Origin: a virus | Taxonomy: Duplodnaviria; Heunggongvirae; Uroviricota; Caudoviricetes | IMG/VR virus record: IMGVR_UViG_2731957841_000001 | Location: 1 to 19,805 of that record | DNA length: 19,805 bases | Direction: 5' to 3' (one strand) | Part shown: piece after piece, positions 2,530-19,805 of the stretch | Layout: the number at the start of each line of letters is the position of its first letter | Position numbering within the stretch: position 1 is the first letter of the stretch | Position numbers and translations under genes: made by a program | The notes under the pieces: model-generated | The model's database searches: none | What the model saw: the letters and a program-made list of their open reading frames with translations, nothing else | Told to the model about the DNA's origin: nothing

Positions 2530-2717
2530 AAAAAATGCCCTCCAATAGAGAGCATTTTTACTGTATGTATAACCAGTGTCAATATATGAAATCCTGCGAC
2601 CATACATCTCACTGAAGCCATAATGAAGTAGGCTATTCTTTTTGCTATGTGAGCATGTAACTTTTGCGGTTAACCTGTGGCTCATTTTTATTTTAGGCGC
2701 AGATATAAAAGCAAAAG

Positions 2718-2909: not shown

Positions 2910-2924
2910 AATTTCCTCCCGGTA

Positions 2925-3494: not shown

Positions 3495-3518
3495 GGTCAC
3501 TCCAAGTGAACTTTTATC

Positions 3519-3574
3519 TTGACGATTTCACTGTGCGATCGTATGTTTATGGTGTTCACAAAATACAAACGATC
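3519..3574 (+). promoter_or_regulatory. Candidate lytic promoter pR (-35 TTGACG 3519..3524, 17-bp spacer, -10 TATGTT 3542..3547) overlapping an imperfect inverted repeat (GATCGTATGT 3537..3546 / ACAAACGATC 3565..3574), a putative operator
   Basis: Hexamers and spacing read from the sequence; position between cI and apl fits a 186-type switch region. Operator assignment is inference. Confidence 0.4.
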
Positions 3575-3619
3575 CGTATTCGTCCTGATTAATCATCATT
3601 AAACGAGGAATGTTGCATC

Positions 3620-3841
3620 ATGAGACCTAACATTTCAATCACTCTTACTACACCTCATGTGACTATTGAACGCTATAGCGAGCTGACAGGGCTATCCATC
3701 GATACCATCAATGACATGTTGGCTGATGGACGCCTTATCCGTCACCGTCTGCGCAAAGATAAAAAACGCGAAAAAGTGATGATCAACATAGCAGCAATGA
3801 CCGTTGATGCGCTTTCAGAATGCAATCTAAACCTTAATTAG
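3620..3841 (+). CDS. apl: Apl/Cox-like excisionase and transcriptional regulator
   Basis: 73-aa ORF, first gene of the rightward early operon facing cI, with an HTH-like segment ([24 protein letters not shown]). Assigned by position and size. Confidence 0.55.
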
Positions 3842-3873
3842 TTCGATTCTGAAATACATCAGAGGCATTGACC

Positions 3874-4383
3874 ATGTTTGATTACCAAGTTTCCAAACAT
3901 CCACATTTTGATGAATCCTGTCGTGCATTCGCATTGCGCCACAACCTGGTGCAACTGGCAGAACGTGCTGGCATGAATGTGCAGATTCTGCGGAACAAGT
4001 TGAACCCAGCTCAACCTCATTTATTAACCGCACCAGAAATCTGGCTGCTTACCGATCTGACTGAAGATTCAACGCTGGTAGATGGTTTTCTGGCTCAGAT
4101 TCACTGCCTGCCATGCGTACCGATTAATGAGGTGGCAAAAGAGAAACTGCCACATTACGTCATGAGTGCAACCGCAGAGATCGGGCGTGTTGCTGCAGGT
4201 GCGGTATCTGGCGATGTAAAAACCAGTGCAGGTCGTCGTGATGCTATCAGCAGCATTAACTCTGTAACACGACTGATGGCGTTGGCTGCTGTTTCATTGC
4301 AGGCCCGTTTACAGGCTAACCCTGCGATGGCGAGTGCAGTTGATACCGTGACTGGCCTCGGTGCTTCATTTGGTTTGCTGTGA
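3874..4383 (+). CDS. cII: CII-like lysogeny establishment regulator (186 CII-like)
   Basis: 169 aa from ATG 3874 (AGAGG RBS 8 nt upstream); [23 protein letters not shown]... closely matches my recollection of 186 CII. Confidence 0.8.
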
Positions 4384-4390
4384 GGTGCTT

Positions 4391-4687
4391 ATGCTGACGA
4401 AAGAACCATCATTTGCATCGCTGCTGGTAAAACAAAGCCCGGCAATGCACTACGGTCACGGCTGGATCACGGGTGAGGATGGAAAACGCTGGCATCCATG
4501 TCATTCACAAGATGAATTGCTGTCTGAATTGACCACGAGGAAACGGAGAAAGTCCAAATGTATGCGGCAGAAAGTGAAGTGGTTTATCAGTTTCGTTACA
4601 GAGGGGAGAGTTATTCAGTACCTGAAGATGATTTGCTCTGTTGCTATCCGTCATTGTCGGGCGATGGCAGTTACTTTTTCACGTTAA
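4391..4687 (+). CDS. Hypothetical early protein; its 3' part overlaps the next ORF out of frame
   Basis: ATG 4391 with a GAGGTG RBS just after the cII stop; the distal part of the translation is Cys/Arg-rich and unconvincing. Confidence 0.3.
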   Translation: MLTKEPSFASLLVKQSPAMHYGHGWITGEDGKRWHPCHSQDELLSELTTRKRRKSKCMRQKVKWFISFVTEGRVIQYLKMICSVAIRHCRAMAVTFSR

Positions 4688-4782
4688 AGGATGGGACGTT
4701 TTTACGGGGAGAGCAGGTTAAAGAGACGATACGAAAAAATGTATCTCCTCTTGAGCGTTACCGTAAGAACAAAGAACGATAG
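4558..4782 (+). CDS. Hypothetical early protein (74 aa)
   Basis: Protein-like translation (MYAAESEVVYQFRYRGESYSVPEDD...), GGAG upstream; overlaps 4391..4687 in another frame. Confidence 0.45.
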   Translation: MYAAESEVVYQFRYRGESYSVPEDDLLCCYPSLSGDGSYFFTLKDGTFLRGEQVKETIRKNVSPLERYRKNKER

Positions 4783-4804
4783 CTGCGTTTGGGGGATATG
4801 AAGT

Positions 4805-5146
4805 ATGGCAATTAATGGCGCTGCAGCGACTGTTCCATTAAGCCCCGGTGAACGCCTGAATGGACTTAATCACATTGCGGAGTTAAGGGCGAAAGTGTTT
4901 GGCCTGAATATTGAGTCAGAGCTTGAGCGGTTTATTAAAGATATGCGTGATCCACGGGATATCAATAATGAACAAAATAAACGGGCACTGGCTGCCATAT
5001 TCTTTATGGCAAAAATTCCAGCTGAACGTCATAGCATCAGCATTAATGAGCTGACCACTGACGAAAAGCGGGAGTTGATTAAAGCAATGAATCATTTTCG
5101 TGCAGTGGTGAGCTTATTTCCCAGACGGCTAACCATGCCGAATTAA
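4805..5146 (+). CDS. Hypothetical early protein (113 aa)
   Basis: ORF with a GGGGGA RBS 8 nt upstream of the ATG; same strand and operon context as the other early genes. Confidence 0.5.
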   Translation: MAINGAAATVPLSPGERLNGLNHIAELRAKVFGLNIESELERFIKDMRDPRDINNEQNKRALAAIFFMAKIPAERHSISINELTTDEKRELIKAMNHFRAVVSLFPRRLTMPN

Positions 5147-5213
5147 CCAACTAATGAAATTAATGGCGTAAACCCGCCGGGCATCCCTTTATCTAAATTC
5201 AGGAGAATTGATT

Positions 5214-5447
5214 ATGCGTAATATTGAAACCCTCACGACTAAAACCGGACCGGATGACGCAGGGCTTAATATTTTACTGACAGAGGCTCGTCTGGAAGAA
5301 CGCCGGGCAAGGGCTGAAGCAATGGCTGCCCGCCTTGATAGTCTTGCGTGTCATATCACATCCCGCCAGCTAAACCACGTCGAAGCGGCAGAACTGCTGC
5401 GTGTGACCGCTGAAGCAATCCAGAACGAAGCGCAGGAGATCCACTAA
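5214..5447 (+). CDS. Hypothetical early protein (77 aa)
   Basis: Start taken at ATG 5214 with an AGGAG RBS at 5201..5205 (the ORF track begins at TTG 5208, too close to the RBS). Stop overlaps the next start (TAATG). Confidence 0.5.
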   Translation: MRNIETLTTKTGPDDAGLNILLTEARLEERRARAEAMAARLDSLACHITSRQLNHVEAAELLRVTAEAIQNEAQEIH

Positions 5448-5674
5448 TGGCTGATGCAATGGATCTCGTACAGCAGCGCGTTGAAGAAGAACGCCAGCGC
5501 CATATCCGTGCTGCCCGTGCCAAAACACCGGGCGTGTCTCGCGTGCTTTGTATTGAATGTGAAGCGCCAATTCCGCCAGCACGCCGCCGCGCCATTCCTG
5601 GAGTGCAGCTTTGCATTACCTGCCAGGAAATCGCAGAGCTGAAAGGCAAACATTACAACGGAGGTGCTGTATGA
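5447..5674 (+). CDS. TraR/DksA-family C4 zinc-finger protein
   Basis: 75 aa with CIECEAP...CITCQ (C-x2-C ... C-x2-C), typical of the small TraR-like proteins in P2-family early operons. Confidence 0.65.
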   Translation: MADAMDLVQQRVEEERQRHIRAARAKTPGVSRVLCIECEAPIPPARRRAIPGVQLCITCQEIAELKGKHYNGGAV

Positions 5675-6528
5675 GCACCATCCTGAAATGGGCGGGTAAT
5701 AAAACCGCCATTATGTCCGAACTGAAAAAATACCTTCCTGCTGGCCCGCGACTGGTTGAACCTTTCGCGGGTTCTTGTGCTGTGATGATGGCGACGGATT
5801 ACCCCAGCTATCTGGTTGCGGATATTAATCCTGATTTAATCAACCTCTATAAAAAGATTGCCGCTGATTGCGAAGCGTTTATATCTCGTGCCAGAGTTTT
5901 ATTTGAGGAAGCAAACAGTGAGCTGGCTTATTACAACATAAGACAGGAGTTTAATTACTCAACTGAAATTACTGATTTCATGAAGGCGATATATTTCCTG
6001 TATCTCAATCGTCACGGTTACCGTGGTTTATGTCGCTATAACAAGAGCGGGCATTTCAACATTCCCTACGGTAATTATAAAAATCCGTATTTCCCTGAAA
6101 AAGAAATTCGCGCATTTGCAGAGAAAGCCCCGCGGGCAACGTTTATCTGCGCCAGCTTTGATGAAACGCTGGCGATGTTGAAGGCGGGGGATGTGGTGTA
6201 TTGCGATCCGCCGTATGACGGTACGTTTTCCGGCTATCACACTGATGGTTTCACTGAAGATGACCAGTATCACCTGGCATCCGTTCTTGAACATCGGTCA
6301 TCAGAAGGTCATCCGGTCATTGTTTCTAACAGTGACACATCCCTGATTCGTTCGCTGTATCGCAATTTCACTCACCACTACATCAAGGCAAAACGCAGCA
6401 TCGGCGTGTCGGCTGGCGAGAGTAAATCTGCAACAGAAATCATTGCTGTTTCCGGGGCGCGCTGCTGGGTGGGATTTGATCCTTCGCGTGGCGTGGATAG
6501 TTCTGCTGTGTACGAGGTGCGTGTATGA
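5671..6528 (+). CDS. dam: DNA N6-adenine methyltransferase (Dam-like)
   Basis: Start at ATG 5671 (GGAGG RBS). N-terminal ILKWAGNK and PFAGSCAV (AdoMet-binding motif I) plus the catalytic DPPY motif ([10 protein letters not shown]). Stop overlaps the A start (ATGA). Confidence 0.8.
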
Positions 6529-8939
6529 GTCATGCCGATATGAGCGACTCTAGCGGCTTTAACGAGGCCGCTGCAGCATTTTCATGGAACGGCCCGAAAA
6601 AGGCCATAAACCCTTATCTGGACCCGGCGGAAGTTGCGCCGGTTTCTGCGCTTTCAAACCTGATCACTCTGTATGCTGCCGATAACGAGCAGGAACAGCT
6701 GCGCCGCGAGGAATTGAGTGAACAGGTCTGGGAGCGTTATTTCTTTAATGAATCCCGTGATCCTGTCCAGCGCGAAATGGAGCAGGATAAGCTCATTAGT
6801 CGGGCAAAGCTGGCGCATGAGCAGCAGCGTTTTAACCCGGACATGGTCATTCTGGCGGACGTCAGCGCCCAGCCCACCCACATCAGCAAGCCGCTGATGC
6901 AACGTATCGAATACTTCAGCAGCCTGGGCAGGCCAAAGGCTTATTCCCGCTATTTGCGTGAGACGATTAAGCCATGTCTGGAGCGACTGGATTGTGTACG
7001 CGACAGTCAGCTATCTACTTCTTTCCGTTTTATGGCAAGCCATCAAGGGCTGGAGGGCCTGCTGATCCTGCCTGAAATGAGTCAGGATCAGGTGAAACGC
7101 CTGTCCACCCTGGTAGCTGCGCATATGAGCATGTGTCTTGAGGCCGCTTGTGGTGATTTGTATACCAACGATGACGTAAAGCCAGAAGAAATCCGCAAGA
7201 CATGGGAAAAGGTGGCAGCGGAAACCCTGCGTCTGGATGTTATCCCGCCTGCGTTTGAGAAACTTCGTCGGAAAAGAAACCGCCGCAAACCTGTGCCCTA
7301 TGAACTCATACCGGGTTCGCTGGCACGTATGCTTTGCGCCGACTGGTGGTATCGAAAATTGTGGAAGATGCGTTGCGAATGGCGGGAAGAGCAGTTGCGT
7401 GCTGTCTGTCTGGTCAGCAAAAAAGCATCTCCCTATGTCAGCTATGAAGCCGTGATGCATAAACGTGAGCAGCGCCGCAAGTCGCTGGAGTTTTTCCGTT
7501 CTCATGAACTGGTGAACGAAGACGGAGACACGCTGGATATGGAAGATGTGGTAAACGCCAGCAGCAGCAACCCGGCACATCGCCGCAATGAGATGATGGC
7601 CTGCGTTAAAGGTCTGGAGCTTATCGCGGAAATGCGCGGTGACTGCGCCGTTTTCTACACCATCACATGTCCGTCACGTTTCCATTCCACGCTCAATAAC
7701 GGCAGGCCCAACCCGACCTGGACAAATGCGACGGTAAGACAAAGCAGCGATTATCTGGTCGGCATGTTTGCTGCATTTCGTAAGGCGATGCACAAAACCG
7801 GGTTGCGCTGGTATGGCGTACGGGTGGCTGAGCCGCACCATGACGGTACTGTGCACTGGCATCTCATGTGTTTCATGCGCAAAAAAGACCGCCGCGCCAT
7901 TACTGCATTGTTGCGTAAGTTTGCCATCCGTGAAGACCGCGAGGAGCTGGGCAATAACACGGGCCCACGCTTTAAGTCTGAGCTGATAAACCCACGCAAA
8001 GGAACGCCGACAAGCTACATCGCAAAATACATCAGTAAGAACATTGACGGGCGTGGTCTGGCTGGCGAGATCAGCAAGGAAACGGGTAAATCCCTGCGTG
8101 ATAACGCCGAATACGTTAATGCCTGGGCGTCTCTGCATCGTGTTCAGCAGTTCCGCTTCTTTGGTATTCCGGGGCGCCAGGCTTACCGTGAACTGCGATT
8201 GCTGGCTGGTCAGGCGGCAAGACAACAGGGTGACAAAAAAGCAGGTGCGCCGGTACTGGATGATCCGCGTCTTGATGCCATCCTGGCTGCTGCTGATGCT
8301 GGTTGTTTTGCCACCTACATCATGAAGCAGGGCGGCGTACTGGTTCCCCGCAAATATCACCTTATCAGAACAGCTTATGAAATTAACGAAGAGCCGACTG
8401 CCTATGGCGATCACGGTATTCGTATTTATGGCATCTGGTCACCCATTTCAGAGGGCAAGATCTGCACTCATGCAGTGAAGTGGAAAATGGTTCGTAAGGC
8501 CGTTGACGTTCAGGAGGCGGTAGCCGACCAGGGCGCTTGCGCCCCTTGGACTCGTGGCAATAACTGTCCCCTTGCTGAAAATTTGTACCAACAAGGGAAA
8601 GACAAATCAGCTGATGGGGGCTCCAGAACGGACATTACCCGCATGGATGACAAGGAATTGCACGATTACCTGCACAGTATGAGCAAAAAAGATCGCCGGG
8701 AGCTGGCAGCAAGGTTGCGCTTGGTGAAACCGAAACGGCGTAAAGACTACAAACAGCGAATTACAGATCATCAGCATCAGCAGCTCGTCTATGAACTGAA
8801 GTCCAGAGGATTTGATGGCAGCGAGAAAGAAGTCGATTTGCTCCTTCGCGGTGGCAGTATTCCGTCAGGAGCAGGCTTGCGTATCTTCTATCGGAACCAG
8901 CGTTTGCGGGAAGATGATAAGTGGCGGAACCTGTATTAA
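6525..8939 (+). CDS. A: Rolling-circle replication initiator (P2 gene A-like HUH endonuclease)
   Basis: 804 aa; HUH-type motif ([10 protein letters not shown]) and paired active-site tyrosines ([10 protein letters not shown]); size and position match P2/186 gene A. Confidence 0.85.
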
Positions 8940-9030
8940 TTACGCGGGTTAACAATTCGTGCTCTTAATAATACCAGGCATATCAGGCTGATGAACGTAA
9001 AAAAACGTTTTACATCAGTAAGATTATTAT

Positions 9031-9050
9031 ATACTGTAAATATAAACAGT
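9031..9050 (+). promoter_or_regulatory. LexA (SOS) box TACTGTAAATATAAACAGTG overlapping a promoter (-35 TTTACA 9008..9013, -10 TATACT 9029..9034)
   Basis: Perfect CTGT-N8-ACAG with an AT-rich centre, directly upstream of the small ORF and DinI-like operon. Confidence 0.6.
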
Positions 9051-9092
9051 GGTTATGTATACAGCATTTCTTGTGGTGTCATAGGAGGAAAG

Positions 9093-9281
9093 ATGCAGGA
9101 CTATTTTTTGGAGTCTTTGAAGCTCCAGCGCATTGATTTTTTTCTTAAGCTTGTAGCGGCTAGTGAGTGTAGTGATGAAGAGAAGGGGCTGGCTTTGCAG
9201 TGGGTTTCTGAACTAACAGATGAACTCATGGCAAAAATCAGAACCCACGAATACAACCGCTCAATGGATGTCATCAGTTGA
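9093..9281 (+). CDS. Small hypothetical protein (62 aa) in the position of a 186 Tum-type antirepressor
   Basis: AGGAGG RBS 4-5 nt upstream of ATG 9093. The longer track ORF starting at 8991 is rejected because the promoter and LexA box lie inside it. Confidence 0.45.
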   Translation: MQDYFLESLKLQRIDFFLKLVAASECSDEEKGLALQWVSELTDELMAKIRTHEYNRSMDVIS

Positions 9282-9291
9282 GGTGACTTTT

Positions 9292-9525
9292 ATGCGCATT
9301 GAAATAATGATCGATAAAGAGCAGAAGATTAGCCAGTCTATCCTGGACGCCCTTGAATCCGAGCTTTACCGCAATCTGCGCCCCCTGTATCCCAAAACGG
9401 TAATTCGTATCCGCAAAGGTAGCTCTAACGGTGTGGAACTGACCGGACTGCAACTGGACGAAGAAAGAAAACAAGTGATGAAAATTATGCAGAAGGTGTG
9501 GGAAGACGACAGCTGGCTGCATTAA
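9292..9525 (+). CDS. DinI-family protein
   Basis: MRIEIMIDKEQ...ILDALESELYRNL...VWEDDSWL aligns along its length with E. coli DinI as I recall it (MRIEVTIAK...IDALAGELSRRI...TWESADDWF). GAGGTGA RBS. Confidence 0.8.
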   Translation: MRIEIMIDKEQKISQSILDALESELYRNLRPLYPKTVIRIRKGSSNGVELTGLQLDEERKQVMKIMQKVWEDDSWLH

Positions 9526-9527
9526 GA

Positions 9528-9570
9528 AACGTTGCTGGCGTCTGAACTTGCTTCTGACGTCAGCAACGTT
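9528..9570. terminator. Long hairpin (15-bp stem AACGTTGCTGGCGTC / GACGTCAGCAACGTT, 13-nt loop) between convergent genes
   Basis: Inverted repeat read from the sequence, 2 nt after the DinI-like stop; a U-rich tract follows only on the minus-strand transcript. Confidence 0.45.
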
Positions 9571-9791
9571 GAACAACTAGTTTAGTGGGGCATTAGTCAT
9601 GGGGTAAAATACAGTAACCATTATTTTCACTTCCGCTCAGATTTAACCGAACGTTAGTTTTGCTACGTATGATGGGCTGCAAATTACCTTTTGGGATTTG
9701 TGATAGATACGAAAATCCTATTAGATGCTTGTTAGACCGGAAGCGCCACTTCGAACGAAAAGTAATGGCCACTTATGCCGGTTTAAAAGCC

Positions 9792-10322
9792 TTAACCTTG
9801 TATAGTTATTTGAATATTTTCTTCATTGACACCAAAGTATAGGGCTAGCCCTGCTTTTGCCTCCTGAAGTGTTAACGGCTTAACTACATTTTCTTCTTCT
9901 TCTTCGTACTCATCACCCGCTTGATCGACAATCGAATTAGTCGGGGTTAATTTTGGAAGAGCTTTAAATTCCAACTTGTCAGCCTCAATGCCAATGTCTT
10001 TGAGGTTGCGATAAGAAACGGGATTCCGATTGCCATCCCATTGTCCTGGGATGTCAATTTCAGCATAAGAATTGATGTTTATGATCCAGCGTTTAGGGTT
10101 TTCTGGAGCCCTGCTTACTCCCGAGATTCGACCGATCATAAAAGCATGATGATGTTTTGCTTCTTGTGATCCCCAGTCCTTTCTCGAATTTTGTACACAA
10201 ACTAAATATTCGTGCTTAGCTGCATGGCTGGCGTCAAGTCTCCATGCTTGGCTTCCCCCTGTGTTCAAAATCTCTGTTAAACCACGAGCAGTAAGTACAG
10301 TAATACAGTTGGTAGTAGCCAT
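9792..10322 (-). CDS. Hypothetical 176-aa protein, opposite-strand orphan in the cargo interval
   Basis: Long AT-rich ORF with a His-rich patch (KHHHAF), a WDGNRN motif and an acidic linker (DEYEEEEEN). No family recognised. Confidence 0.55.
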   Translation of the reverse strand: MATTNCITVLTARGLTEILNTGGSQAWRLDASHAAKHEYLVCVQNSRKDWGSQEAKHHHAFMIGRISGVSRAPENPKRWIININSYAEIDIPGQWDGNRNPVSYRNLKDIGIEADKLEFKALPKLTPTNSIVDQAGDEYEEEEENVVKPLTLQEAKAGLALYFGVNEENIQITIQG

Positions 10323-10637
10323 TGAATTGTGACCCCGTCTTTTTTAGAGAAATACTATTGATGAATGTAGTTTACGTATTTTTTTATTGAGTAGTCAAGT
10401 TAGTATTCTGCTCGTTATTGGCTGTTTTTTGAGTGTTGTGAGTTAGTACTTTGTGTAGTACCTCTTGGTTTATGAGGGTTAAATCTAAGTTATGACAAAG
10501 GGAGGCAGGGGGAACGCGCAGCGCAAGGTGTACAGGAGGCCATAAGGACTCACTTGAAGTAAGAAAAGATCGATAAAGCAACAATGCATGTCTATGCCGC
10601 ATGAATTCGCATGATCGTTTGAGGATCGTTTTAGCTG

Positions 10638-10667
10638 AGGCCCGCTAGGAATGGCGGGCTTTTGTTT
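10638..10667 (+). terminator. Rho-independent terminator-like hairpin (GCCCGC / GCGGGC stem, 8-nt loop) followed by TTTTGTTT
   Basis: Read from the sequence; no plus-strand gene lies upstream within about 1 kb. Confidence 0.45.
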
Positions 10668-10708
10668 ATGTCATGCAAGTGCATGAAAACCACTACATAA
10701 AGCGGGCA

Positions 10709-10727
10709 GGCGTGGCGGGGATACGAG
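10709..10727. other. cos-like motif GGCGTGGCGGGGATACGAG
   Basis: First 13 nt match the 186 cohesive end as I recall it (GGCGTGGCGGGGAAAGCAT; P2 is GGCGAGGCGGGGAAAGCAC). It is a GC-rich island in AT-rich spacer between the A-side cargo and Q. Confidence 0.35.
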
Positions 10728-10764
10728 CGCGCGCTGGGAGGTATAAGAATGAAGTACAATTAAC

Positions 10765-10792
10765 TTCACTTTGTTGAGTAAAATGCTATAAG
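10765..10792 (+). promoter_or_regulatory. Candidate sigma70 promoter for the OLD-like gene (-35 TTCACT, 16-bp spacer, -10 TATAAG)
   Basis: Hexamers read from the sequence about 70 bp upstream of ATG 10859; weak match, unverified. Confidence 0.25.
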
Positions 10793-10858
10793 AATAATGC
10801 AAATTATTGAGTCCCATTAGTTCAAAACTTAGGGATATCTTATGTGAAAGGAGGTTAT

Positions 10859-12544
10859 ATGTTAGATAAATTGATTTTTAATTCAGGAAGTAATCCAACA
10901 TCTAAATCTTCATTATCGGTTGACTTGACTCCATTGACAATTTTTGTGGGGCCGAATAATAGTGGTAAATCTAGAGCTTTAATCGATATAGAAAATCAAC
11001 TGACAACCCGAAATGCAGCGCAGGGAGAAGTAATAAAACAGATATTAATCAAACCACTTTCTGAGGATGAAGCAAAAAAGGAAATTGAATCTTTACAAGT
11101 TGAGCCAAACCAGGATGAAAAGCATGCGGGGCATGTTGTTTTATCTAGGCTAAACCTCCGTGGTGAAGGAATATCTAGGATTCTAGTGTATTTGGATGGA
11201 ATGTTAAGAGAATTCCAGCAACCCAATGAATTCAATCGGGAGCATCTATATCAATATTACTCGTTGCTGACTCTAAGGTTGGATGGTAGAAGTCGACTTT
11301 CCTTAACTTCAAGTCAAGGTTCATCCGATTTACAAGGAGAACCTACGAATAACCTTTCATTTCTTTTTAAAAATAATAAAGCAAGGATGGAGCTAAGAGA
11401 TATCGTTTTTGATGCTTTCGGGAAGTATCTTGTTATTGATCCAACAAATATAGGTTATCTTAGAATTCGTCTTTCTGAGCGCGCTCCTGAGACTGAACAA
11501 GAAGAAAGAGGTTGGGATGAAAAGTCAGTGCTTTTTCATTCAAAAGCGTCATTGATTACAGAGGCTAGCGATGGTGTTAATGCTTTTGTTGGGATGATGA
11601 TTTCGCTGATAGTTGGCTCACCAAAGGTGACTCTAATTGATGAGCCGGAAGCTTTTTTACATCCATCCTTATGCTCAAAGTTAGGAAAGGAAATATCTAG
11701 GATTAGTGCTCATAGTAATAAAAATGTGTTTATTTCAACGCATAGCGCTAATTTTTTAATGGGTTGTGTTCAAGGTAAAGTGCCATTGAATATAGTTAGG
11801 CTTACTTTTGATGGTAAATCTGGTACGTCTAGATTACTAACAAAGGAACAATTGACGCCGCTCATGAGAAATCCGTTATTAAGATCTATTGGTGTGCTAA
11901 ACGCATTGTTTTATAATTACGTTGTCGTTACTGAAGCGGATGCAGATAGGGCATTTTATCAAGAGATTAATGAGCGCTTATTGGCTGCTGGAGATCCTCG
12001 GGGTATTGAGGGATGCCTGTTTTTGAATGCTCAAAACAAACAAACTGTTTGGGATATAGTAAAACCCCTTCGTGAGCTAGGTATTCCCTGCGTTGGAGTG
12101 GTAGATATCGATATATTGAAGGAGGGAGGAGTTGTATGGAAAAAACCAATGCTTGGAGCTTTTTTTCCAGAAATGAAGCATGAAACTTTAGGTTTGGAAA
12201 GACAAAAGCTTTTTCAAGCCTTCAAAAATACGAATAAAAATATGAAGACAGATGGGGGCCTCTCCTTGTTATCGGGTTCAGATAAAACCGCCTGCTCTGA
12301 GTTTTTTAAATCCCTTTCAGATTATGGGGTTTTTGTCGTTCCAACGGGCGAGATCGAGTCTTGGTTGCAAAATCTTGAAATAGGTCGAGGAAAGAATACT
12401 TGGTTAACAAGTATTTTCGAGAAGATGGGGGATGATCCTAATGATGAATCATATGTGAAGCCATCTGAAGGTGATGTTTGGGATTTTATTGGGAATATAA
12501 AGCACTGGTTGGTTAACCCTGAAAGGAAGGGTATTCCCGAGTGA
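10859..12544 (+). CDS. OLD-family nuclease: N-terminal ABC-type ATPase plus C-terminal Toprim domain (P2 Old-like, class 1 arrangement)
   Basis: Start at ATG 10859 (AGGAGG RBS). Walker A (FVGPNNSGKS), signature-like EASDGVNAF, Walker B (VTLIDEPEAFLHP), H-loop (ISTHSA); C-terminal Toprim-like acidic motifs (VVVTEADADRAF, VGVVDIDIL). No adjacent helicase gene. Confidence 0.7.
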   Translation: MLDKLIFNSGSNPTSKSSLSVDLTPLTIFVGPNNSGKSRALIDIENQLTTRNAAQGEVIKQILIKPLSEDEAKKEIESLQVEPNQDEKHAGHVVLSRLNLRGEGISRILVYLDGMLREFQQPNEFNREHLYQYYSLLTLRLDGRSRLSLTSSQGSSDLQGEPTNNLSFLFKNNKARMELRDIVFDAFGKYLVIDPTNIGYLRIRLSERAPETEQEERGWDEKSVLFHSKASLITEASDGVNAFVGMMISLIVGSPKVTLIDEPEAFLHPSLCSKLGKEISRISAHSNKNVFISTHSANFLMGCVQGKVPLNIVRLTFDGKSGTSRLLTKEQLTPLMRNPLLRSIGVLNALFYNYVVVTEADADRAFYQEINERLLAAGDPRGIEGCLFLNAQNKQTVWDIVKPLRELGIPCVGVVDIDILKEGGVVWKKPMLGAFFPEMKHETLGLERQKLFQAFKNTNKNMKTDGGLSLLSGSDKTACSEFFKSLSDYGVFVVPTGEIESWLQNLEIGRGKNTWLTSIFEKMGDDPNDESYVKPSEGDVWDFIGNIKHWLVNPERKGIPE

Positions 12545-12551
12545 GTTTATT

Positions 12552-12573
12552 GAGCCGCTTTAGCGGCTCTTTT
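12552..12573 (+). terminator. Rho-independent terminator (GAGCCGC-TTTA-GCGGCTC followed by TTTT) after the OLD-like gene
   Basis: Hairpin plus T-run 8 nt after the stop codon, in the 36-bp gap before the convergent Q stop. Confidence 0.55.
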
Positions 12574-12580
12574 CATATTC

Positions 12581-13609
12581 CTATGCAAGGTTATATTCAT
12601 TAAATTGCATTATTGGCTCCTTTATCCATTCATTTACTTCTTGAAGCCTTTTTTGCAATGGAATTAGCTCATTACGGACAAAGACCCTGCTGGCTTTCTC
12701 CACATCCCCAAATCCCCCGACATTATTTGGCATTATCCCCATCATTTGTGGCGGCACACGATGCGCAGCCATCATGTCATCCCGGCTCACGTTCTTGATA
12801 TTCAGAAACTCATCCTTCGCCGCGACTTCTGACAACGGGATGATCTGAAGCCCGTCCTTTTTGCCGTTAGGCGAGTACATAAACAGGTTGCGGAAGTTGC
12901 CAGGGCCTTTGGCGCTTTTCATCGCATTGCGGAGGTTGTTCACATCCTCCTGGTTCTGCGCGGCATCGGTCATGTACATGATGAAGCCTGCATGACTGCC
13001 GTTAATGTAATACTTCCGGCGGAACAGCGTGGCGGACTCGTTGAGCAGGGCTGACGGAATGGCAGAAAGATAACCTGGCAGGCCGTAGATCTCCTGGTTG
13101 ATGTCAGGTTCCATCAGATGAAAAATGCTGCCTTTCGTGAACTGATACGGCTGGGTTGTCATACCGTATTGCACAAACCAGTAGGTATCCAGGTCTAACC
13201 CGCGTCGGGTGTATTTTGCCAGCGCAGGCTCAAGGGCTATAACTTCACCGAATCGGTTCGTGCGTTTCTCCAGGTAGGCGTTACCAAATACCAGATAGTC
13301 CTGCACAAAACGCGAAAAAGCCTGTTGGCTGAGCAGCGGATGAGGGATATAGGTACTGGTCAGAATGTTGCACTTTACTGCAATCGGGGAACTGTGATGC
13401 ACGGCAGCCCGGAAGGTGCGCGCCAGTCCGTCAAAACTTACGGGTGGCTCATACCAGCGATCCGTCTGTACGCATTCCACATAGTCCAGCAGTTCGCGGC
13501 GGTCCAGTACAGGAATGGGATCACCAAAGCTGAAAGCTTCGGCTGAAGTTTGATTTTTATGCTGGCTCCGTTTCGTCGCAGCAGCGCGGTTTTTCTTACT
13601 CTTTCCCAT
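12581..13609 (-). CDS. Q: Portal protein (P2 gpQ-like)
   Basis: 342 aa from ATG 13609 (the track starts one codon earlier at TTG); directly downstream of the terminase gene with a TGATG stop/start overlap, as in the P2 PQ operon. Confidence 0.85.
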   Translation of the reverse strand: MGKSKKNRAAATKRSQHKNQTSAEAFSFGDPIPVLDRRELLDYVECVQTDRWYEPPVSFDGLARTFRAAVHHSSPIAVKCNILTSTYIPHPLLSQQAFSRFVQDYLVFGNAYLEKRTNRFGEVIALEPALAKYTRRGLDLDTYWFVQYGMTTQPYQFTKGSIFHLMEPDINQEIYGLPGYLSAIPSALLNESATLFRRKYYINGSHAGFIMYMTDAAQNQEDVNNLRNAMKSAKGPGNFRNLFMYSPNGKKDGLQIIPLSEVAAKDEFLNIKNVSRDDMMAAHRVPPQMMGIMPNNVGGFGDVEKASRVFVRNELIPLQKRLQEVNEWIKEPIMQFNEYNLA

Positions 13610-15375
13610 CAAAAAATCTCCACAATATTGCTGGTATTGGCGGACTCGCCCTGCAGCGGTTCGTTAAACAGTGCGTGCATTGTTGCCCAGGCCAGATCGG
13701 CGTGGCTGGCTTCTTCGCTGCGGCTAGCTTCATAGGTCGGGCGGTTGCCGCTGGCGGTGGTGGCGCGACGGATTGCCATGAATGACTGCGCAATGTCGGT
13801 GTGCCCGGCGTCAAACTCCAGACGGCGGTGGCTGATAATGTCGTAGGCCTTGAGTACCAGGGCGTTTTTAACGTTGGGGTTGTAGACAAACTCCCGGACG
13901 GCAGGAAAGAACGCTTTCACGTTCTCATAAACCCCGTGACCGACGCCTGTCGAGTCGATGCCGATATAGGTCACGTTGTACTGCTCGGTCAGTTTTTTGA
14001 TTGCATCAGCCTGGGCGCGGAAGTCCATCCCGCGCCACTGGTGACGCTCAAGAATGCGAAACTTACCGCCTGGCACGGCTGGCGGTGCCACCACCACGCA
14101 TCCGGCGCTGTCGCCATTCTGCGTACCTTTTGCCGGGTCATAACCGATCCACACCTCGCGCCAGCCAAACGGGCGCAGGGCCAGTGCATGAAAGTCGGTC
14201 CAGACTTCCCAACTGTCCACCATGCACGCCTGCAGCTCGCTGAGCGGAAACACGGATGCGAGATCGTCCACAAACTCGCACATCAGCAGGTTCTGGTATT
14301 CGTCCGGGCTGTACTCCATGCGTAGCTGGTCGAGGTCGAACAGGTTACAGCCGCCGCGCACCGCATCTTCCACGGTGACTATCTGGCGGTATTGCCCGTC
14401 TGCGCACAGCAGGCCGGGGGCCAGATTGCTGTGGGACAGGTCGATGTCCACCTTATCGGCTTTGTTGCGCCCACGGTTGAACAGCGCACCGGACCAGAAC
14501 GGATAAGCACTGTGTGTCAGACTGGATGGCGTGGAAAAATAGGTTTGTCGCCATTTTTTGTGAATAGCCATACCGGAAGCCACTTTGCGCAGCTCCTGGA
14601 ATTTCGGTATCCAGAAATATTCATCCAGATACAGGTTGCCGTGGTAACTCTGGGCCGTGCGGGCATTGGTGCCGAGGAAGTAAAGCGTGGCCCCGTTAGG
14701 AAGCACCATCGGATCGCCTTTCAGCTCCACCTCCACTTCTTTGGCAAAGTCGATGATGTACTGTTTAAAGACGTGGGCCTGAGCCTTGCTGGCAGAAAGG
14801 AAAATCTGGTTACGCCCGGTCAGCAGGGCGTCAATCAGGGCTTCACGGGCAAAGTAAAAGGTCGCGCCGATCTGGCGTGACTTCAGCAGGTTGCGGATGC
14901 GGTTGGTTTTTCCGGCTTCCCACCAGTGGCGCTGGTAGTTGAACATAGAGGAATGGAAGATTTCTTCCAGTTTCTCAATCTGTTCATCGGTGAAAACATT
15001 CTTTTCCGGCTGACGACGTGGGCCTTTGTTGCGGTTGGCAACGTTAGGGTTTAAGTCGGCTTCGTTGCCGCCATTGTTAAACTTGCCGATCCGCGCGTGG
15101 CGCTCAGACTGGCGTGCCAGCAGGTCAATTTCTTTGAAATCTTTCCCTTCTTTGTGCTCCTTCATAATGAGCTGGCAGTAGCGTGCGGCGGTGGTGAGCT
15201 GCATCTGATCCAGCGGCCCATAGTCACCCCACTTGTCGCGTTTTTTCCAGCTGTGAACGGTTGCAACTTTCTCGCCCAGCATTTCAGCAATGCGGGCGAC
15301 GCGGTATCCCTGAAAGTACAGCAGCATGGCCTGCCGACGGGGATCGAGATCTGCGGGTGTCAGTGTGGTGTTCAT
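13609..15375 (-). CDS. P: Terminase large (ATPase) subunit (P2 gpP-like)
   Basis: 588 aa; N-terminus (LDPRRQAMLLYFQGYRVARIAEMLG...HSWKKRDKW) and size match P2 gpP; followed by Q on the same strand. Confidence 0.85.
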   Translation of the reverse strand: MNTTLTPADLDPRRQAMLLYFQGYRVARIAEMLGEKVATVHSWKKRDKWGDYGPLDQMQLTTAARYCQLIMKEHKEGKDFKEIDLLARQSERHARIGKFNNGGNEADLNPNVANRNKGPRRQPEKNVFTDEQIEKLEEIFHSSMFNYQRHWWEAGKTNRIRNLLKSRQIGATFYFAREALIDALLTGRNQIFLSASKAQAHVFKQYIIDFAKEVEVELKGDPMVLPNGATLYFLGTNARTAQSYHGNLYLDEYFWIPKFQELRKVASGMAIHKKWRQTYFSTPSSLTHSAYPFWSGALFNRGRNKADKVDIDLSHSNLAPGLLCADGQYRQIVTVEDAVRGGCNLFDLDQLRMEYSPDEYQNLLMCEFVDDLASVFPLSELQACMVDSWEVWTDFHALALRPFGWREVWIGYDPAKGTQNGDSAGCVVVAPPAVPGGKFRILERHQWRGMDFRAQADAIKKLTEQYNVTYIGIDSTGVGHGVYENVKAFFPAVREFVYNPNVKNALVLKAYDIISHRRLEFDAGHTDIAQSFMAIRRATTASGNRPTYEASRSEEASHADLAWATMHALFNEPLQGESANTSNIVEIF

Positions 15376-15424
15376 GGCACAAACCTACAGCCTTGAATGA
15401 AGGCTTTCCCCGCCTGCGGTTTGT

Positions 15425-15943
15425 GTGGTTGAAGGACTTTCAGTTGCGGGGCCAACTGCAGCTTATGAATTTCATGCCCGAAGCGCCGACGGTCGGGTGG
15501 CGGATGCCAGTGCAACCAGCCCGGCACCTGCAGAGGTGGTGCTGACTGTCCTTAGCCGCGAAGGCGATGGAACTGCAGAAAAAGACCTGCTGGACGTGGT
15601 GGAAAAAGCTCTGAACAGTGAGAACGTCCGCCCGGTGGCTGACCGTCTTACGGTTCGCAGCGCAGAAATCATCCCGTATCGCGTGGAAGCCACCATTTTT
15701 CTCTATCCGGGACCGGAAGCAGAGCCGGTAATGGCAGCGGCAAAAGCCAGTCTGCAGAAGTACATTGCCAGCCAGACGAGGCTTGGTCGGGATATTCGCC
15801 GTAGCGCCATCTTTGCTGCTCTGCATGTTGAGGGTGTTCAACGTGTGGAACTGGCTTCTCCGCTGGCGGATGTGGTCCTGAACAAAACACAGGCGGCATC
15901 ATGTACGCAGTGGAGCGTAACCAACGGAGGAACGGATGAATAG
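15425..15943 (+). pseudogene. J: Baseplate protein J, C-terminal fragment only
   Basis: Translation resembles the C-terminal part of P2-type gpJ (RPVADRLTVRSAEIIPYRVEATIFLYPG...IFAALHVEGVQRVEL), and its stop overlaps the next start as at the P2 J/I junction. It begins about 50 bp after the P start codon, so O-N-M-L-lysis-R-S-V-W and the J N-terminus are absent. Confidence 0.6.
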
Positions 15944-17828
15944 TCTGCTGCCACCGGGTTCAACTTCACTGGAGCGCCGACTGGCGCAAACCTGTAGCGG
16001 GATTTCTGATTTGCAGGTGCCGCTGCGTGACTTGTGGAATCCGGCTATCCAGCGTGTGCTGGAGAAGGTGAACGCACTGCCGCAGGACAAGCGTCTGTCT
16101 GCCATGACCATGTTGTTTGGTAAAGAGTTTGGCGATGACGCGGCGAAACTGGCAAACAACCTGCCGGAACTACAGCGCCAGCTAAAACTGACAGCGGGCA
16201 ATGATGCGCTCGGTTCCATGCAGAAAGAATCCGACATCAACAAGGACTCACTTTCTGCTCAGTGGTTGCTGGTTAAAACCGGAGCGCAGAATACCTTCAG
16301 CAGCCTGGGCGAAACGCTGCGCCAGCCGCTGATGGATATTCTGTACACGGTGAAAAGCGTTACGGGAGCGTTGCGTCGCTGGGTGGAAGCTAACCCGGAA
16401 CTGACGGGCACACTGATGAAAGTAGCCGCTATTGTGGCTGCGGTTACCGTCGGCCTCGGCACCTTGGCTGTGGCGCTGGCTGCAGTGCTGGGGCCGCTGG
16501 CAGTCATCCGTCTGGGATTCTCTGTGCTGGGCATCAAAACGTTACCTTCCGTTACGGCAGCAGTAACACGAACCAGCAGCGCGTTGTCCTGGCTGGCTGG
16601 CGCACCACTGGCACTGCTGCGACACGGGCTTGCTTTATCGGGTAACGCAGCGGGTTTACTTACTGCGCCGTTGTCGTCTTTGCGCCGTACGGCATCACTG
16701 ACGGGAAATGTCCTGAAAACTGTTGCAGGTGCGCCGGTTGCACTTTTGCGGTCTGGATTATCCGGTTTACGTGCGGTTGCTGTGATGTTTATGAATCCTC
16801 TGGCGGTACTGCGCGGTGGACTGACCGCCGCAGGTACGGTGCAGCGAGTACTGGCATCTGGTCCACTGGCGATGCTGCGCGTTGCCCTGTATGCCATATC
16901 TGGTCTGTTAGGTGCTCTGCTCAGTCCGATAGGTCTAGTGGTTACTGCACTGGCAGGCGTGGCGCTGGTTGTCTGGAAATACTGGCAACCCATCACCGCA
17001 TTTCTCGGTGGCGTGGTGGAGGGATTCAAAGCGGCGGCAGGTCCCGTCAGTGCCGCATTCGAACCACTTAAGCCTGTGTTCCAGTGGATTGGCGACAAAG
17101 TGCAGGCGCTGTGGGGCTGGTTTACTGACCTGCTGACGCCCGTTAAGTCGACCTCTGCCGAACTGCAGAGTGCAGCGGCAATGGGGCGACGATTCGGGGA
17201 GGCTCTGGCGGAAGGGCTGAATATGGTCATGCATCCGCTGGACTCCCTGAAATCCGGCGTTTCCTGGTTGCTGGAGAAACTCGGCATTGTCAGTAAAGAG
17301 GCCGCAAAGGCAAAACTACCGGAAAGCGTGACGCGTCAGCAACCTGCGACGGTGAATGCAGACGGCAAAGTGATGATGCCATCGGGTGGTTTTCCATCAT
17401 GGGGATATGGCTTTGCGGGGATGTATGACAGCGGCGGGTATATCCCGCGCGGGCAGTTTGGCATCGTCGGTGAAAACGGGCCGGAAATTGTTAACGGCCC
17501 GGCAAATGTGACCAGCCGGAGAAATACAGCTGCACTGGCTGCCGTTGTTGCCGGAATGATGGGCGTTGCTGCCGCGCCAGCAGAGCTTCCACCGTTGCAC
17601 CCTTTGGCACTTCCCGCGAAAGGTGGAGAAGCAATTGTGAGTCGCGCAGCCACTGTGCCGCTCGTTCAACGGATTGAGGCACCGACGCAGATCATCATTC
17701 AGACGCAGCCAGGACAAAGTGCGCAGGATATTGCGCGGGAGGTGGCACGCCAGCTTGATGAACGTGAACGCAGGCTGAAGGCAAAAGCCAGGAGTAACTA
17801 CAGCGATCAGGGGGGATACGACGCATGA
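15936..17828 (+). CDS. T: Tail tape measure protein, truncated; the first ~37 codons look like the N-terminus of tail protein I (in-frame deletion fusion)
   Basis: N-terminus LLPPGSTSLERRLA...VPLRDLWNP resembles the gpI start, then switches to tape-measure-like sequence with degenerate PLAxLRxGL repeats and the C-terminal MYDSGGYIPRGQFGIVGENGPEIV motif. Stop overlaps the U start (ATGA). Confidence 0.65.
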   Translation: MNSLLPPGSTSLERRLAQTCSGISDLQVPLRDLWNPAIQRVLEKVNALPQDKRLSAMTMLFGKEFGDDAAKLANNLPELQRQLKLTAGNDALGSMQKESDINKDSLSAQWLLVKTGAQNTFSSLGETLRQPLMDILYTVKSVTGALRRWVEANPELTGTLMKVAAIVAAVTVGLGTLAVALAAVLGPLAVIRLGFSVLGIKTLPSVTAAVTRTSSALSWLAGAPLALLRHGLALSGNAAGLLTAPLSSLRRTASLTGNVLKTVAGAPVALLRSGLSGLRAVAVMFMNPLAVLRGGLTAAGTVQRVLASGPLAMLRVALYAISGLLGALLSPIGLVVTALAGVALVVWKYWQPITAFLGGVVEGFKAAAGPVSAAFEPLKPVFQWIGDKVQALWGWFTDLLTPVKSTSAELQSAAAMGRRFGEALAEGLNMVMHPLDSLKSGVSWLLEKLGIVSKEAAKAKLPESVTRQQPATVNADGKVMMPSGGFPSWGYGFAGMYDSGGYIPRGQFGIVGENGPEIVNGPANVTSRRNTAALAAVVAGMMGVAAAPAELPPLHPLALPAKGGEAIVSRAATVPLVQRIEAPTQIIIQTQPGQSAQDIAREVARQLDERERRLKAKARSNYSDQGGYDA

Positions 17829-18310
17829 TGATGGTGCTGGGATTGTACGTGTTTATGCTGCGCACCGTTCCGTATCAGGAACTGCAGTATCAACGCAGCT
17901 GGCGACATGCGGCAAACAGTCGGGTAAACCGACGTCCGTCCACGCAGTTTCTGGGACCGGAAAACGACATGCTGACGCTTTCCGGTGTTCTTATGCCGGA
18001 GATAACAGGCGGCAGGCTGTCGTTGCTGGCACTGGAGCAGATGGCAGAACAGGGGAAAGCATGGCCCCTGATTGAAGGCAGCGGCATGATTTACGGCATG
18101 TATGTGATTGAGGGACTGAATCAGACTAAAACGGAGTTTTTCCGCGACGGTATGCCGCGCCGGATTGAGTTCACCCTGTCGCTCAAACGAGTGGATGAAT
18201 CCCTGTCCGATATGTTCGGTGATCTCAGTGCGCAACTGAATAATCTGCAGGACACGGCAACGTCTGCCTTAAGCGATATCAGTAAAACGGTGGGAGGGCT
18301 GCTGTCGTGA
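17825..18310 (+). CDS. U: Tail protein U (P2 gpU-like)
   Basis: 161 aa; N-terminus MMMVLGLYVFMLRTVPYQELQYQRSW matches my recollection of P2 gpU; position between T and D. Confidence 0.8.
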   Translation: MMMVLGLYVFMLRTVPYQELQYQRSWRHAANSRVNRRPSTQFLGPENDMLTLSGVLMPEITGGRLSLLALEQMAEQGKAWPLIEGSGMIYGMYVIEGLNQTKTEFFRDGMPRRIEFTLSLKRVDESLSDMFGDLSAQLNNLQDTATSALSDISKTVGGLLS

Positions 18311-19407
18311 ATTTCAGCTCAGAACTGCTTAACAAAGGCAACAAAACTCCCGCATTCAGCATCAGTATTGAGGGCAGGGATATCACCACAGTGCTGGATA
18401 ACCGCCTGATGAGTTTGACGCTGACGGATAACCGGGGCTTTGAAGCGGACCAGCTTGATCTGGAGTTGGATGACGCTGACGGAAAAATCGTGCTGCCGCG
18501 CCGTGGTGCGGTCATTACGCTGGCGCTGGGCTGGAAGGGGCAGCTGCTTTTCCCGAAAGGGGCATTCACAGTGGACGAGATTGAACACACTGGCGCACCG
18601 GACCGCCTGACTATCCGGGCGCGAAGTGCTGATTTTCGGGAAACGCTGAATACCCGCCGTGAAAAATCGTGGCATAAGACCACCGTCGGGGAAGTGGTGA
18701 AGGAAATAGCCGCGCGGCACAAGCTGAAGATGGCACTGGGTAAAGACCTGTCGGATAAGCCCGTGGAGCATATAGACCAGACTAATGAGAGTGACGGCAG
18801 TTTTCTGATGCGGCTGGCGCGACAATACGGTGCCATCGCGTCGGTGAAAAATGGCAATCTGTTATTCATCCGGCAGGGGCAGGGCAAAAGCGTCACTGGT
18901 AAACCTCTGCCAGTGATCACTATCACACGCAAGGACGGCGACAGTCACCGATTTACCCTGGCAGATCGCGGAGCCTACACGGGCGTAATTGCCAGCTGGT
19001 TGCATACCCGCGAACCTGCGAAGAAAGAAAGCACCACGGTGAAGCGTAAGCGCAGAACTAAGAAGCAGAAGAAAGAGCCAGAAGCGAAGCAGGGCGATTA
19101 CCTGGTGGGTACGGATGAAAACGTGCTGGTACTTAATCGCACTTATGCCAACCGGAGCAACGCCGAACGAGCGGCGAAAATGCAGTGGGAACGCCTGCAA
19201 CGCGGCGTTGCGTCATTTTCGCTACAACTGGCAGAAGGGCGGGCAGATCTCTACACGGAAATGCCTGTGAAGGTCAGTGGTTTTAAACAGCCGATAGATG
19301 ATGCGGAATGGACCATTACGACTCTGACACATACCGTCAGCCCGGATAACGGTTTTACAACCAGTATTGAACTCGAAGTGAAGATTGATGATTTCGAAAT
19401 GGAATGA
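18307..19407 (+). CDS. D: Tail/late gene D protein (P2 gpD-like)
   Basis: 366 aa; MNFSSELLNKGNKTPAFSISIEGRDIT... matches P2 gpD as I recall it; apparent GTG start overlapping the U stop (GTGA). Confidence 0.8.
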   Translation: MNFSSELLNKGNKTPAFSISIEGRDITTVLDNRLMSLTLTDNRGFEADQLDLELDDADGKIVLPRRGAVITLALGWKGQLLFPKGAFTVDEIEHTGAPDRLTIRARSADFRETLNTRREKSWHKTTVGEVVKEIAARHKLKMALGKDLSDKPVEHIDQTNESDGSFLMRLARQYGAIASVKNGNLLFIRQGQGKSVTGKPLPVITITRKDGDSHRFTLADRGAYTGVIASWLHTREPAKKESTTVKRKRRTKKQKKEPEAKQGDYLVGTDENVLVLNRTYANRSNAERAAKMQWERLQRGVASFSLQLAEGRADLYTEMPVKVSGFKQPIDDAEWTITTLTHTVSPDNGFTTSIELEVKIDDFEME

Positions 19408-19496
19408 TTCTTCGCAATGGAGAACTTTTAAGTTTGCAAAATGGAATAATGCGGTATCATTATTGTGAATTTAGCAAAAATGGGAGAACTCGAAAA

Positions 19497-19715
19497 ATGA
19501 TGATTTGCCCACTGTGTGGAAGTGCCGCCCATACTCGCAGCAGTTTTCAGGTATCTTCATTGACCAAAGAGCGTTACAACCAGTGCCAGAATATTAACTG
19601 CAGCCATACTTTTGTAACCCATGAAACTTTTGTTCGTTCGATTGCAACGCCAAAAGAGTCAAATCCGGTTCAGCCGCATCCAATGAAATCAGGACAGGTG
19701 GCGCTCTCTCTTTGA
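19497..19715 (+). CDS. ogr: Ogr-type zinc-finger late transcription activator
   Basis: 72 aa from ATG 19497; CPLCGSAAHTRSS...ERYNQCQNINCSHTF matches the P2 Ogr zinc-finger pattern; last gene before the right-hand repeat. Confidence 0.85.
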   Translation: MMICPLCGSAAHTRSSFQVSSLTKERYNQCQNINCSHTFVTHETFVRSIATPKESNPVQPHPMKSGQVALSL

Positions 19716-19716
19716 C

Positions 19717-19739
19717 GCTGCCGCCATTTTGTCGCCATC
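19717..19739. repeat. Putative attR core: CGCTGCCGCCATTTTGTCGCCAT, direct repeat of 94..116
   Basis: 22/23 identity with the left copy; starts 2 nt after the ogr stop codon. Confidence 0.55.
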
Positions 19740-19805
19740 GTTAAAAAACAGTGCTTCTAACGTCATGATTTTAAACGACATAAATTTCAGGCAACAAAAA
19801 ACCCA

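Follow-up and report, generated by a model that had tools for sequence, protein, structure and literature searches.

An OLD-family ATPase–Toprim gene, probably anti-phage cargo, between cos and the portal gene of a P2/186-like Escherichia coli prophage

The stretch of DNA analysed here (the window) comprises 19,805 nucleotides (nt), positions 1 to 19,805 of the IMG/VR virus record IMGVR_UViG_2731957841_000001. The window is part of a P2/186-like Escherichia coli prophage and is 100% identical to strain 1297KP, between rcdA and ybjL. In the RefSeq annotation, the genes of the prophage follow in the order integrase, CI, CII, Fil, Dam methylase, replication endonuclease gpA, a small open reading frame (ORF), DinI, the cos/OLD-like region, portal (Q), terminase (P) and capsid genes. 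The OLD-like gene of this region, the subject of this report, sits on the portal side of cos, i.e., between cos (10709-10727) and the portal gene. It encodes a protein of 561 amino acids (aa) that is probably a stand-alone Class 1 OLD enzyme, made up of an ATPase of the ATP-binding cassette (ABC) type and a two-metal Toprim nuclease, and carried as anti-phage cargo in a cos-proximal hotspot of the prophage. The gene and its immediate flanks are laid out as follows.

10736..10858, + strand: AT-rich leader, presumed promoter and ribosome-binding site (GGAGG at 10850-10854, 4 nt before the ATG)
10859..12544, + strand: coding sequence of the 561-aa Class 1 OLD-family ATPase–Toprim protein (WP_057698812.1), as assigned from the ORF, Pfam, PADLOC, fold and profile comparison
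12552..12574, + strand: intrinsic terminator-like hairpin GAGCCGCT-TTAG-AGCGGCTC followed by TTTTC (hairpin at 12552-12569, then the T-run)

The start was placed at the ATG at 10859, as in RefSeq (where WP_057698812.1 bears the product name “ATP-dependent nuclease”) and in all homologues, and the longer frame from a GTG at 10844 in the ORF list was left unused. A preliminary description of this DNA, made from the letters alone, had ended the feature at 12573; since the terminator lies at 12552-12574, that end takes in the terminator and not coding sequence. The same description had called the gene markedly more AT-rich than the phage core, which agrees with a G+C content of 38.3%, compared to 53.0% for gene A, 54.9% for Q and P together and 56.2% for the capsid genes. 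The window contained no Rfam family and no tRNA. An 18-nt inverted repeat flanking the gene (16 of 18 positions; 10793-10810 and 12597-12614) was considered as a signature of mobility and rejected: dinucleotide shuffling of the region produced a 16/18 repeat in 55 of 100 cases, and the PIN-gene cassette that takes the place of the OLD-like gene in a related prophage lacks the flanking repeat, which is therefore probably meaningless.

The protein divides into two domains, with the following landmarks, all on the + strand.

aa ~1-335, 10859..11863: ABC-type ATPase domain (Pfam AAA_15, AAA_21)
aa 31-38, nt 10949-10972: Walker A motif, G31-PNNSGKS-38
about aa 257-264: Walker B motif, L259-IDEPE-264 (aa 257-262 = nt 11627-11644)
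within the ATPase domain: signature-like motif S237-D-G, D-loop H268 and H-loop H295
aa ~350-505, 11906..12373: Toprim nuclease domain (PF20469, and hhalign to the P2 Old family)
within the Toprim domain, by motif and alignment: E359 (nt 11933-11935), D363, D416xD418 (nt 12104-12112) and E498xE500 (nt 12350-12358)

Pfam matched the N-terminal half to AAA_15 (50 bits) and AAA_21 (48 bits). Across 51 homologues, residues K37, D261/E262, H268 and H295 do not vary. Long parts of the Toprim half are almost unchanged, and the acidic ligands are invariant or nearly so across the family. Among the PADLOC models, Old scored best (1.3e-20, aa 254-515). The matches to AriA, AriAB, GajA, HEC-01A and PtuA models fell inside the ATPase domain, mostly around Walker B, with the exception of one GajA model (aa 197-494), and a retron ATPase-Toprim_I-B model matched aa 257-418. 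A scan of NCBIfam gave nothing close to any cutoff. An AlphaFold2 model built from the 51 homologues had a predicted local distance difference test (pLDDT) score of 89.9 and a predicted template modelling (pTM) score of 0.87, and the solved structures closest to it were TsOLD, the retron Eco8 OLD and GajA. (A sequence search of the PDB returned only generic ABC transporters at E >0.1, and a search of viral structures in BFVD only AAA/ABC proteins of giant and archaeal viruses, which was uninformative.) The preliminary description had proposed an ATPase–Toprim protein with a complete set of ABC motifs and C-terminal acidic Toprim residues, and motifs, Pfam, fold and profile comparison bear this out. 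By homology, the protein would be an ATP-regulated two-metal Toprim nuclease.

Among characterised proteins, the closest relative in the nuclease half is the Old protein of phage P2. BLASTP aligned the two with 24% identity over 312 aa (E 3e-12), limited to aa 254-544, the C-terminal 55% of the protein. In a profile comparison with a 35-member P2 Old family, hhalign gave 96.2% probability over 240 columns, running from Walker B to past the metal-B site. The OLD profile check proposed in the preliminary description thus came out in favour of OLD, both in the best PADLOC model and in this alignment. We used the residues of P2 Old mutated by Schiltz et al. (PMC7049728) as the reference for mapping, with the following result.

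K37 corresponds to P2 Old K37 (Walker A)
D261 corresponds to P2 Old D299 (Walker B)
H268 corresponds to P2 Old H306 (D-loop)
H295 corresponds to P2 Old H332 (H-loop)
E359 corresponds to P2 Old E398 (metal A)
D416 and D418 correspond to P2 Old D453 and D455 (metal A)
D363 corresponds to P2 Old E402 (metal B)
E498 and E500 correspond to P2 Old D541 and E543 (metal B)

Each of the six metal-binding acidic residues in P2 Old therefore has an acidic counterpart in the 561-aa protein. Of 120 relatives listed for P2 Old, 108 contained the family domain PF11398 (DUF2813), those lacking it being mostly more distant or truncated; of 120 relatives listed for the 561-aa protein, none contained it. Since the N-terminal half cannot be aligned and DUF2813 occurs on the P2 Old side only, the two groups are best described as sister subfamilies and not as orthologues. 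As judged from these comparisons, the Toprim half of the protein has a specific relationship to the P2 Old family, but the protein is not the P2 Old orthologue.

The family is large. With E up to 1e-30 as the limit, a profile search recovered 1,616 sequences, each representing a cluster at 50% identity; of the best 150, most were full length (~545-585 aa) and roughly 18 were shorter and probably partial. In a scan of one genome per species, the family was present in at least 516 species, and it extends over at least 12 phyla, including Proteobacteria, Bacteroidota, Cyanobacteria, Planctomycetota, Acidobacteriota, Gemmatimonadota, Nitrospirota, Verrucomicrobiota, Spirochaetes and Bacillota. Gene neighbourhoods were sampled at 82 loci from many phyla by clustering the ORFs within 3.5 kb of the gene. 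No neighbour was conserved: the largest shared cluster, in seven loci, was metH in Pasteurellaceae, which is plain synteny, and among 148 immediate neighbours scanned with Pfam, 142 families were seen, almost all of them once only, with no recurrent helicase or reverse transcriptase (RT). In the window, the gene stands alone between cos and the portal gene, with no helicase, RT or other partner gene in the slot. The preliminary description had set the gene apart from the two-gene Gabija system because it has no partner helicase, and the 82 loci extend this to the family. Class 1 OLD is defined as a single gene (PMC10568477); the absence of a conserved neighbour therefore places the OLD-like gene in Class 1, an assignment with which the Old model and the structural matches to TsOLD, Eco8 OLD and GajA are consistent.

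The position of the gene in the prophage is best understood from the conserved block around cos and the variable segments on either side of it.

9621-10580: slot 1, on the gpA side of cos, occupied here by a gene for a 176-aa protein, by a DUF6236 gene in strain N18-04097 and by other genes in strain EC11
10581..10735, no strand: conserved cos block of 155 bp, which parts the two variable slots of the gpA–gpQ hotspot
10637..10662, + strand: terminator-like hairpin 5' of cos, with an 11-pair stem and a T-run
10709..10727, no strand: cos cohesive-end sequence GGCGTGGCGGGGATACGAG, which aligns, flanks included, with P2 cosL/cosR GGCGAGGCGGGGAAAGCAC
10736..12647, no strand: swap slot 2, from cos to the portal gene, with AT-rich cargo (37.6% G+C) that includes the OLD-like gene
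12581..12647, - strand: last ~22 codons of the portal gene (ORF 12581-13612), within the swapped segment

Between DinI and the portal gene, only 10581-10735 aligns to the related prophage L087 (95.5% identity); the alignment stops at 10735 and restarts at 12648, and slot 2 of L087 holds a PIN-domain gene. The cos block has matches in 1271 E. coli genomes and in P2-like phages of Klebsiella, Salmonella and Yersinia, and the cos core is also kept in the Pantoea, Hafnia and Serratia loci described below. In P2 itself, the interval from cos to the portal gene is an empty 167-bp spacer, and a P2-type empty junction is the common state, seen in no fewer than 1537 of the 5426 complete E. coli genomes. 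Slot 2 contains the OLD-like gene in the window and in strain EC11, and a PIN-domain gene in strain N18-04097. From the comparison with two other E. coli prophages, the gpA–gpQ hotspot consists of two independently exchanged slots around the cos block. A gene of foreign composition thus lies beside cos between gpA and gpQ, where related prophages carry other cargo, and the segment is exchanged as a unit, in keeping with the self-contained cassette of the preliminary description. Homology to L087 begins only at 12648, so the 3' end of the portal gene varies between prophages and moves with the slot-2 cargo, which places the recombination junction inside the portal gene.

The 176-aa ORF in slot 1 (WP_000246368.1, 9792-10322, - strand) matched only phrog_37247, of unknown function, and occurs in 8 of the 5426 E. 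coli genomes. It was considered as a partner of the OLD-like gene and rejected. It gave no Pfam or PADLOC match, and strain EC11 and the locus in the table of Rousset et al. have different slot-1 genes; the two genes meet only in this strain, and the 176-aa ORF is therefore not a partner. It is a candidate hotspot cargo gene in its own right that assorts independently of the OLD-like gene.

Of the 5426 complete E. coli genomes, 19 carry the OLD-like gene. One of these, E. coli MB30 (hit H37, NZ_CP073968.1, 3105297-3108497), has ISKpn26, of the IS5 family, and a “hypothetical protein” annotated in the matched stretch; the element may have inserted into or beside the gene. The arrangement of cos, OLD-like gene and portal gene recurs in prophages of Pantoea (70% identity) and Serratia (61%), and of 25 full-length relatives in IMG/VR, 5 converge directly on a P2-type portal gene, at identities as low as 42%. 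Decayed P2-like remnants lie beside ybjL in two further genera. The remnant in Hafnia alvei (L091, 3000-7500) consists of an integrase fragment, DUF6236, an intact cos core, the OLD-like gene and a portal fragment, and that in Cronobacter dublinensis (L089, 4794-6715) retains the OLD-like gene with a degenerate cos. In both, the OLD-like cargo has outlived the phage. The same protein had been listed by Rousset et al. (2022) as system 95 of the P2 (gpA–gpQ) hotspot, a single gene with 34 occurrences described as “AAA_15/AAA_21/SMC_N”; in the printed part of its sequence, it differs from the 561-aa protein by one residue.

A defence role is suggested by the location of the gene, a validated defence hotspot, and by precedent in the family, in which the single genes for P2 Old, Vc OLD and YbjD each confer an anti-phage phenotype (PMC12445682, PMC12392090, PMC13261556). 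In the scheme that we favour, the AT-rich leader of 120 bp would contain a promoter from which the lysogen transcribes the gene. Such a local promoter is presumed because the terminator-like hairpin at 10637-10662 and cos lie directly upstream; the hairpin would shield the cassette from + strand transcription entering from further upstream. The protein would stay inactive until a competing phage infects the cell, whereupon ATP binding and hydrolysis at the ABC heads would license the Toprim site, with metal A presumably held by E359, D416 and D418 and metal B by D363, E498 and E500. The licensed site would then cut a double-stranded nucleic-acid target, and the cleavage would abort the infection. 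P2 Old cuts the anticodon stems of tRNA (PMC12445682) and Vc OLD nicks DNA (PMC12392090); by our rough estimate, RNA or tRNA is, if anything, a slightly better guess than DNA for the target here, and some other target a distinctly poorer one.

Several observations weigh against a defensive Class 1 OLD enzyme, or against parts of that assignment. The Pfam match to OLD-like_TOPRIM (PF20469, aa 350-418) reached 23.5 bits at a cutoff of 23.2 and is marginal taken alone, although the fold and profile matches back the Toprim assignment. In hhalign, the N-terminal 255 residues did not align to the P2 Old family, so that regulation and oligomerisation may differ from those of P2 Old, and R510/K512, which align near P2 K550 (the basic residue just past the metal-B motif, R487 in TsOLD), are at a position that is not invariant and reads G-H-G in some family members. 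The preliminary description had credited the gene with its own promoter and terminator, of which only the terminator could be recovered: a consensus promoter scan of the + strand from cos to the ATG found no site matching at least 9 of 12 positions, the leader showed no conserved hexamers when aligned across genera, and the spacer upstream of the gene is not conserved. System 95 of Rousset et al. (2022) carries no OLD or Toprim label in the accessible part of the table and was not one of the cloned systems, and our literature search found no experimental work on the 561-aa protein or its clade. Finally, at non-phage loci the gene usually lies among ordinary genes and not in defence islands (the 148 neighbours, mostly unrelated singletons, showed no defence-island enrichment), and its core is strongly conserved across phyla, both of which are compatible with a role outside defence.

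Such a role, whether in DNA repair or maintenance, in stabilisation of the element (addiction) or in the cell cycle, as described for the archaeal OLD protein Cran1, is nevertheless unlikely. The ordinary surroundings in most bacterial loci and the nearly invariant C-terminal core would fit it, retention in prophage remnants shows selection only and not its kind, and Cran1 (PMC12796447) shows that OLD proteins can serve other ends. However, Class 1 OLD genes are typically isolated and not found in islands anyway (PMC10568477), the gene is patchy in E. coli and of foreign composition, it occupies a slot in which other defence-type cargo is swapped inside a validated hotspot, and the bacterial and phage OLD proteins assayed against phage all gave anti-phage phenotypes. 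We consider it slightly more unlikely still that the protein is a functional P2 Old orthologue that senses RecBCD inhibition (by lambda Gam), cuts the anticodon stem of tRNA-Thr(UGU) and excludes lambda, an option that had been left open in the preliminary description. The kinship in the nuclease half would favour it, and so would the shared setting, in each case a lone gene next to the cos of a P2-like phage, with transcription leading away from cos. It is opposed by the 24% identity restricted to aa 254-544, by the unaligned N-terminal half, by the distribution of PF11398, by the location on opposite sides of cos, by the separateness of the two families, which have distinct sets of relatives reaching down to 35-40% identity, and by the divergence in substrate and trigger of the Class 1 members Vc OLD and YbjD (PMC12392090, PMC13261556).

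The other option left open before, a fused PARIS-type (AriA–AriB) protein, is very improbable. Fused genes of this kind exist (PMC9122126), and PADLOC AriA models matched at ~5e-15 and AriAB at ~1e-10. The AriA model with two matching stretches and the AriAB model peak near Walker B (aa 254-305; best AriAB stretch aa 257-305), though, and even the longest AriA match (aa 26-300) is confined to the ATPase domain. A Pfam scan of the protein found no DUF4435 at E up to 1, and when the family was compared by hhalign with AriB of E. coli B185, the probability was 0.15%, so AriB was rejected as a relative. The preliminary description had proposed an alignment of the C-terminal domain to Toprim or DUF4435 as a check; the domain aligns to the former, through PF20469 and through hhalign to P2 Old, and not to the latter. 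A GajA or a retron-type OLD effector left orphaned by loss of the partner has next to nothing to recommend it: no UvrD-like helicase or RT lies beside the gene in the window or recurs in the 82 loci, there were no Rfam matches, the NCBIfam model retron_eff_Eco8 scored 31 bits at a cutoff of 250, and the conserved length of ~561 aa is below the sizes of the solved Class 2 and Class 3 chains among the structural matches listed.

Two further gene sets in the prophage were noted in passing. A gene for a DNA adenine methylase (5611-6528, + strand) lies in the early operon, directly 5' of the replication gene gpA in the RefSeq annotation (L001, 7072-7929). Between the integrase and the attachment site by rcdA, an ORF with a SocA/Panacea antitoxin domain (877-1344) is followed by a 251-aa ORF without a family match (116-871), both in the interval 116-1344 on the - strand. 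This looks like a toxin–antitoxin or defence pair of the Panacea type, in a minor int–att hotspot of P2-like phages.

What was known already is the listing of the protein as system 95; the present analysis adds, on sequence grounds, its identity as a Class 1 OLD, a nuclease half like that of P2 Old, and membership of a clade of its own. This does not overturn current understanding. The gene is not a new kind of system but a distant relative of P2 old. It sharpens the picture of the P2 hotspot, with two independent slots around the cos block, the second reaching into the end of the portal gene. Stand-alone OLD nucleases are little studied: assays against phage exist for P2 Old, Vc OLD and YbjD, and TsOLD is known from biochemistry and structure only. 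The three assayed proteins already diverge in substrate, trigger and reliance on the nuclease domain. The OLD-like gene represents a large and well-conserved clade and is a natural, clean one-gene cassette whose swap partner is known, in an E. coli prophage that is easy to work with. It should therefore be a convenient system for asking whether a Class 1 OLD defends alone at native expression, what it cuts, and how the ATPase gates the nuclease. More tentatively, and with doubt prevailing, the protein may belong to a distinct, unnamed clade of stand-alone nucleases of ~560 aa that has been captured repeatedly by the cos–portal slot. Such proteins would have a compact ATPase without the usual dimerisation insert, which has four helices in TsOLD (in the AlphaFold2 model, aa 142-189 contain short helices only), and a trigger and target of their own, unlike the RecBCD-linked trigger and tRNA-Thr target of P2 Old or the DNA nicking of Vc OLD. 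If so, the clade would add a further mechanistic subtype to single-gene OLD defence.

The stand-alone OLD genes Vc OLD and E. coli YbjD/OldB resemble the OLD-like gene in that they curtail phage growth without a partner (PMC12392090, PMC13261556). By its published motif positions, Vc OLD (K48, D313 and D468/D470) differs from the 561-aa protein (K37, D261 and D416/D418). The host chromosome itself carries ybjD/oldB (L086, 16945-18603), lately proposed as a chromosomal Class 1 OLD, ~50 kb from the OLD-like gene. YbjD/OldB of the same genome was rejected as a relative, as there was no significant similarity by BLASTP (E 0.088) or hhalign (2.7%); the host strain thus has two stand-alone OLD genes that look unrelated. 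From the Class 1 OLD of Thermus scotoductus (PDB 6P74), only 269 of 512 residues superpose on the model. PARIS, Gabija GajA and the retron Eco8 effector (Classes 4, 2 and 3, respectively) share the logic of an ABC-ATPase joined to a Toprim domain, and the overall fold, whereas the OLD-like gene has no partner gene such as the UvrD/PcrA-like helicase GajB or an RT.

The closest comparison remains that with P2 Old (NP_046798, UniProt P13520). Both are single-gene ABC-ATPase–Toprim proteins of similar length (586 aa in P2 Old, 561 aa here), both are cargo beside the cos of a P2-like phage and are transcribed away from it, and the residues of the ATPase motifs are kept along with the six acidic metal ligands. 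The spacing from Walker B to DxD is almost equal (155 residues here, 154 in P2 Old). In contrast, the distance from Walker A to Walker B is ~38 residues shorter in the 561-aa protein, which has no DUF2813/SMC_N match and belongs to a separate, widely spread family. While P2 old (31620-33380) lies on the gpA side of cos, between tin/gpA and cosR, is read leftward and has tin as a partner, the OLD-like gene lies on the portal side without tin, and its orientation relative to the flanking genes differs from that of P2 old.

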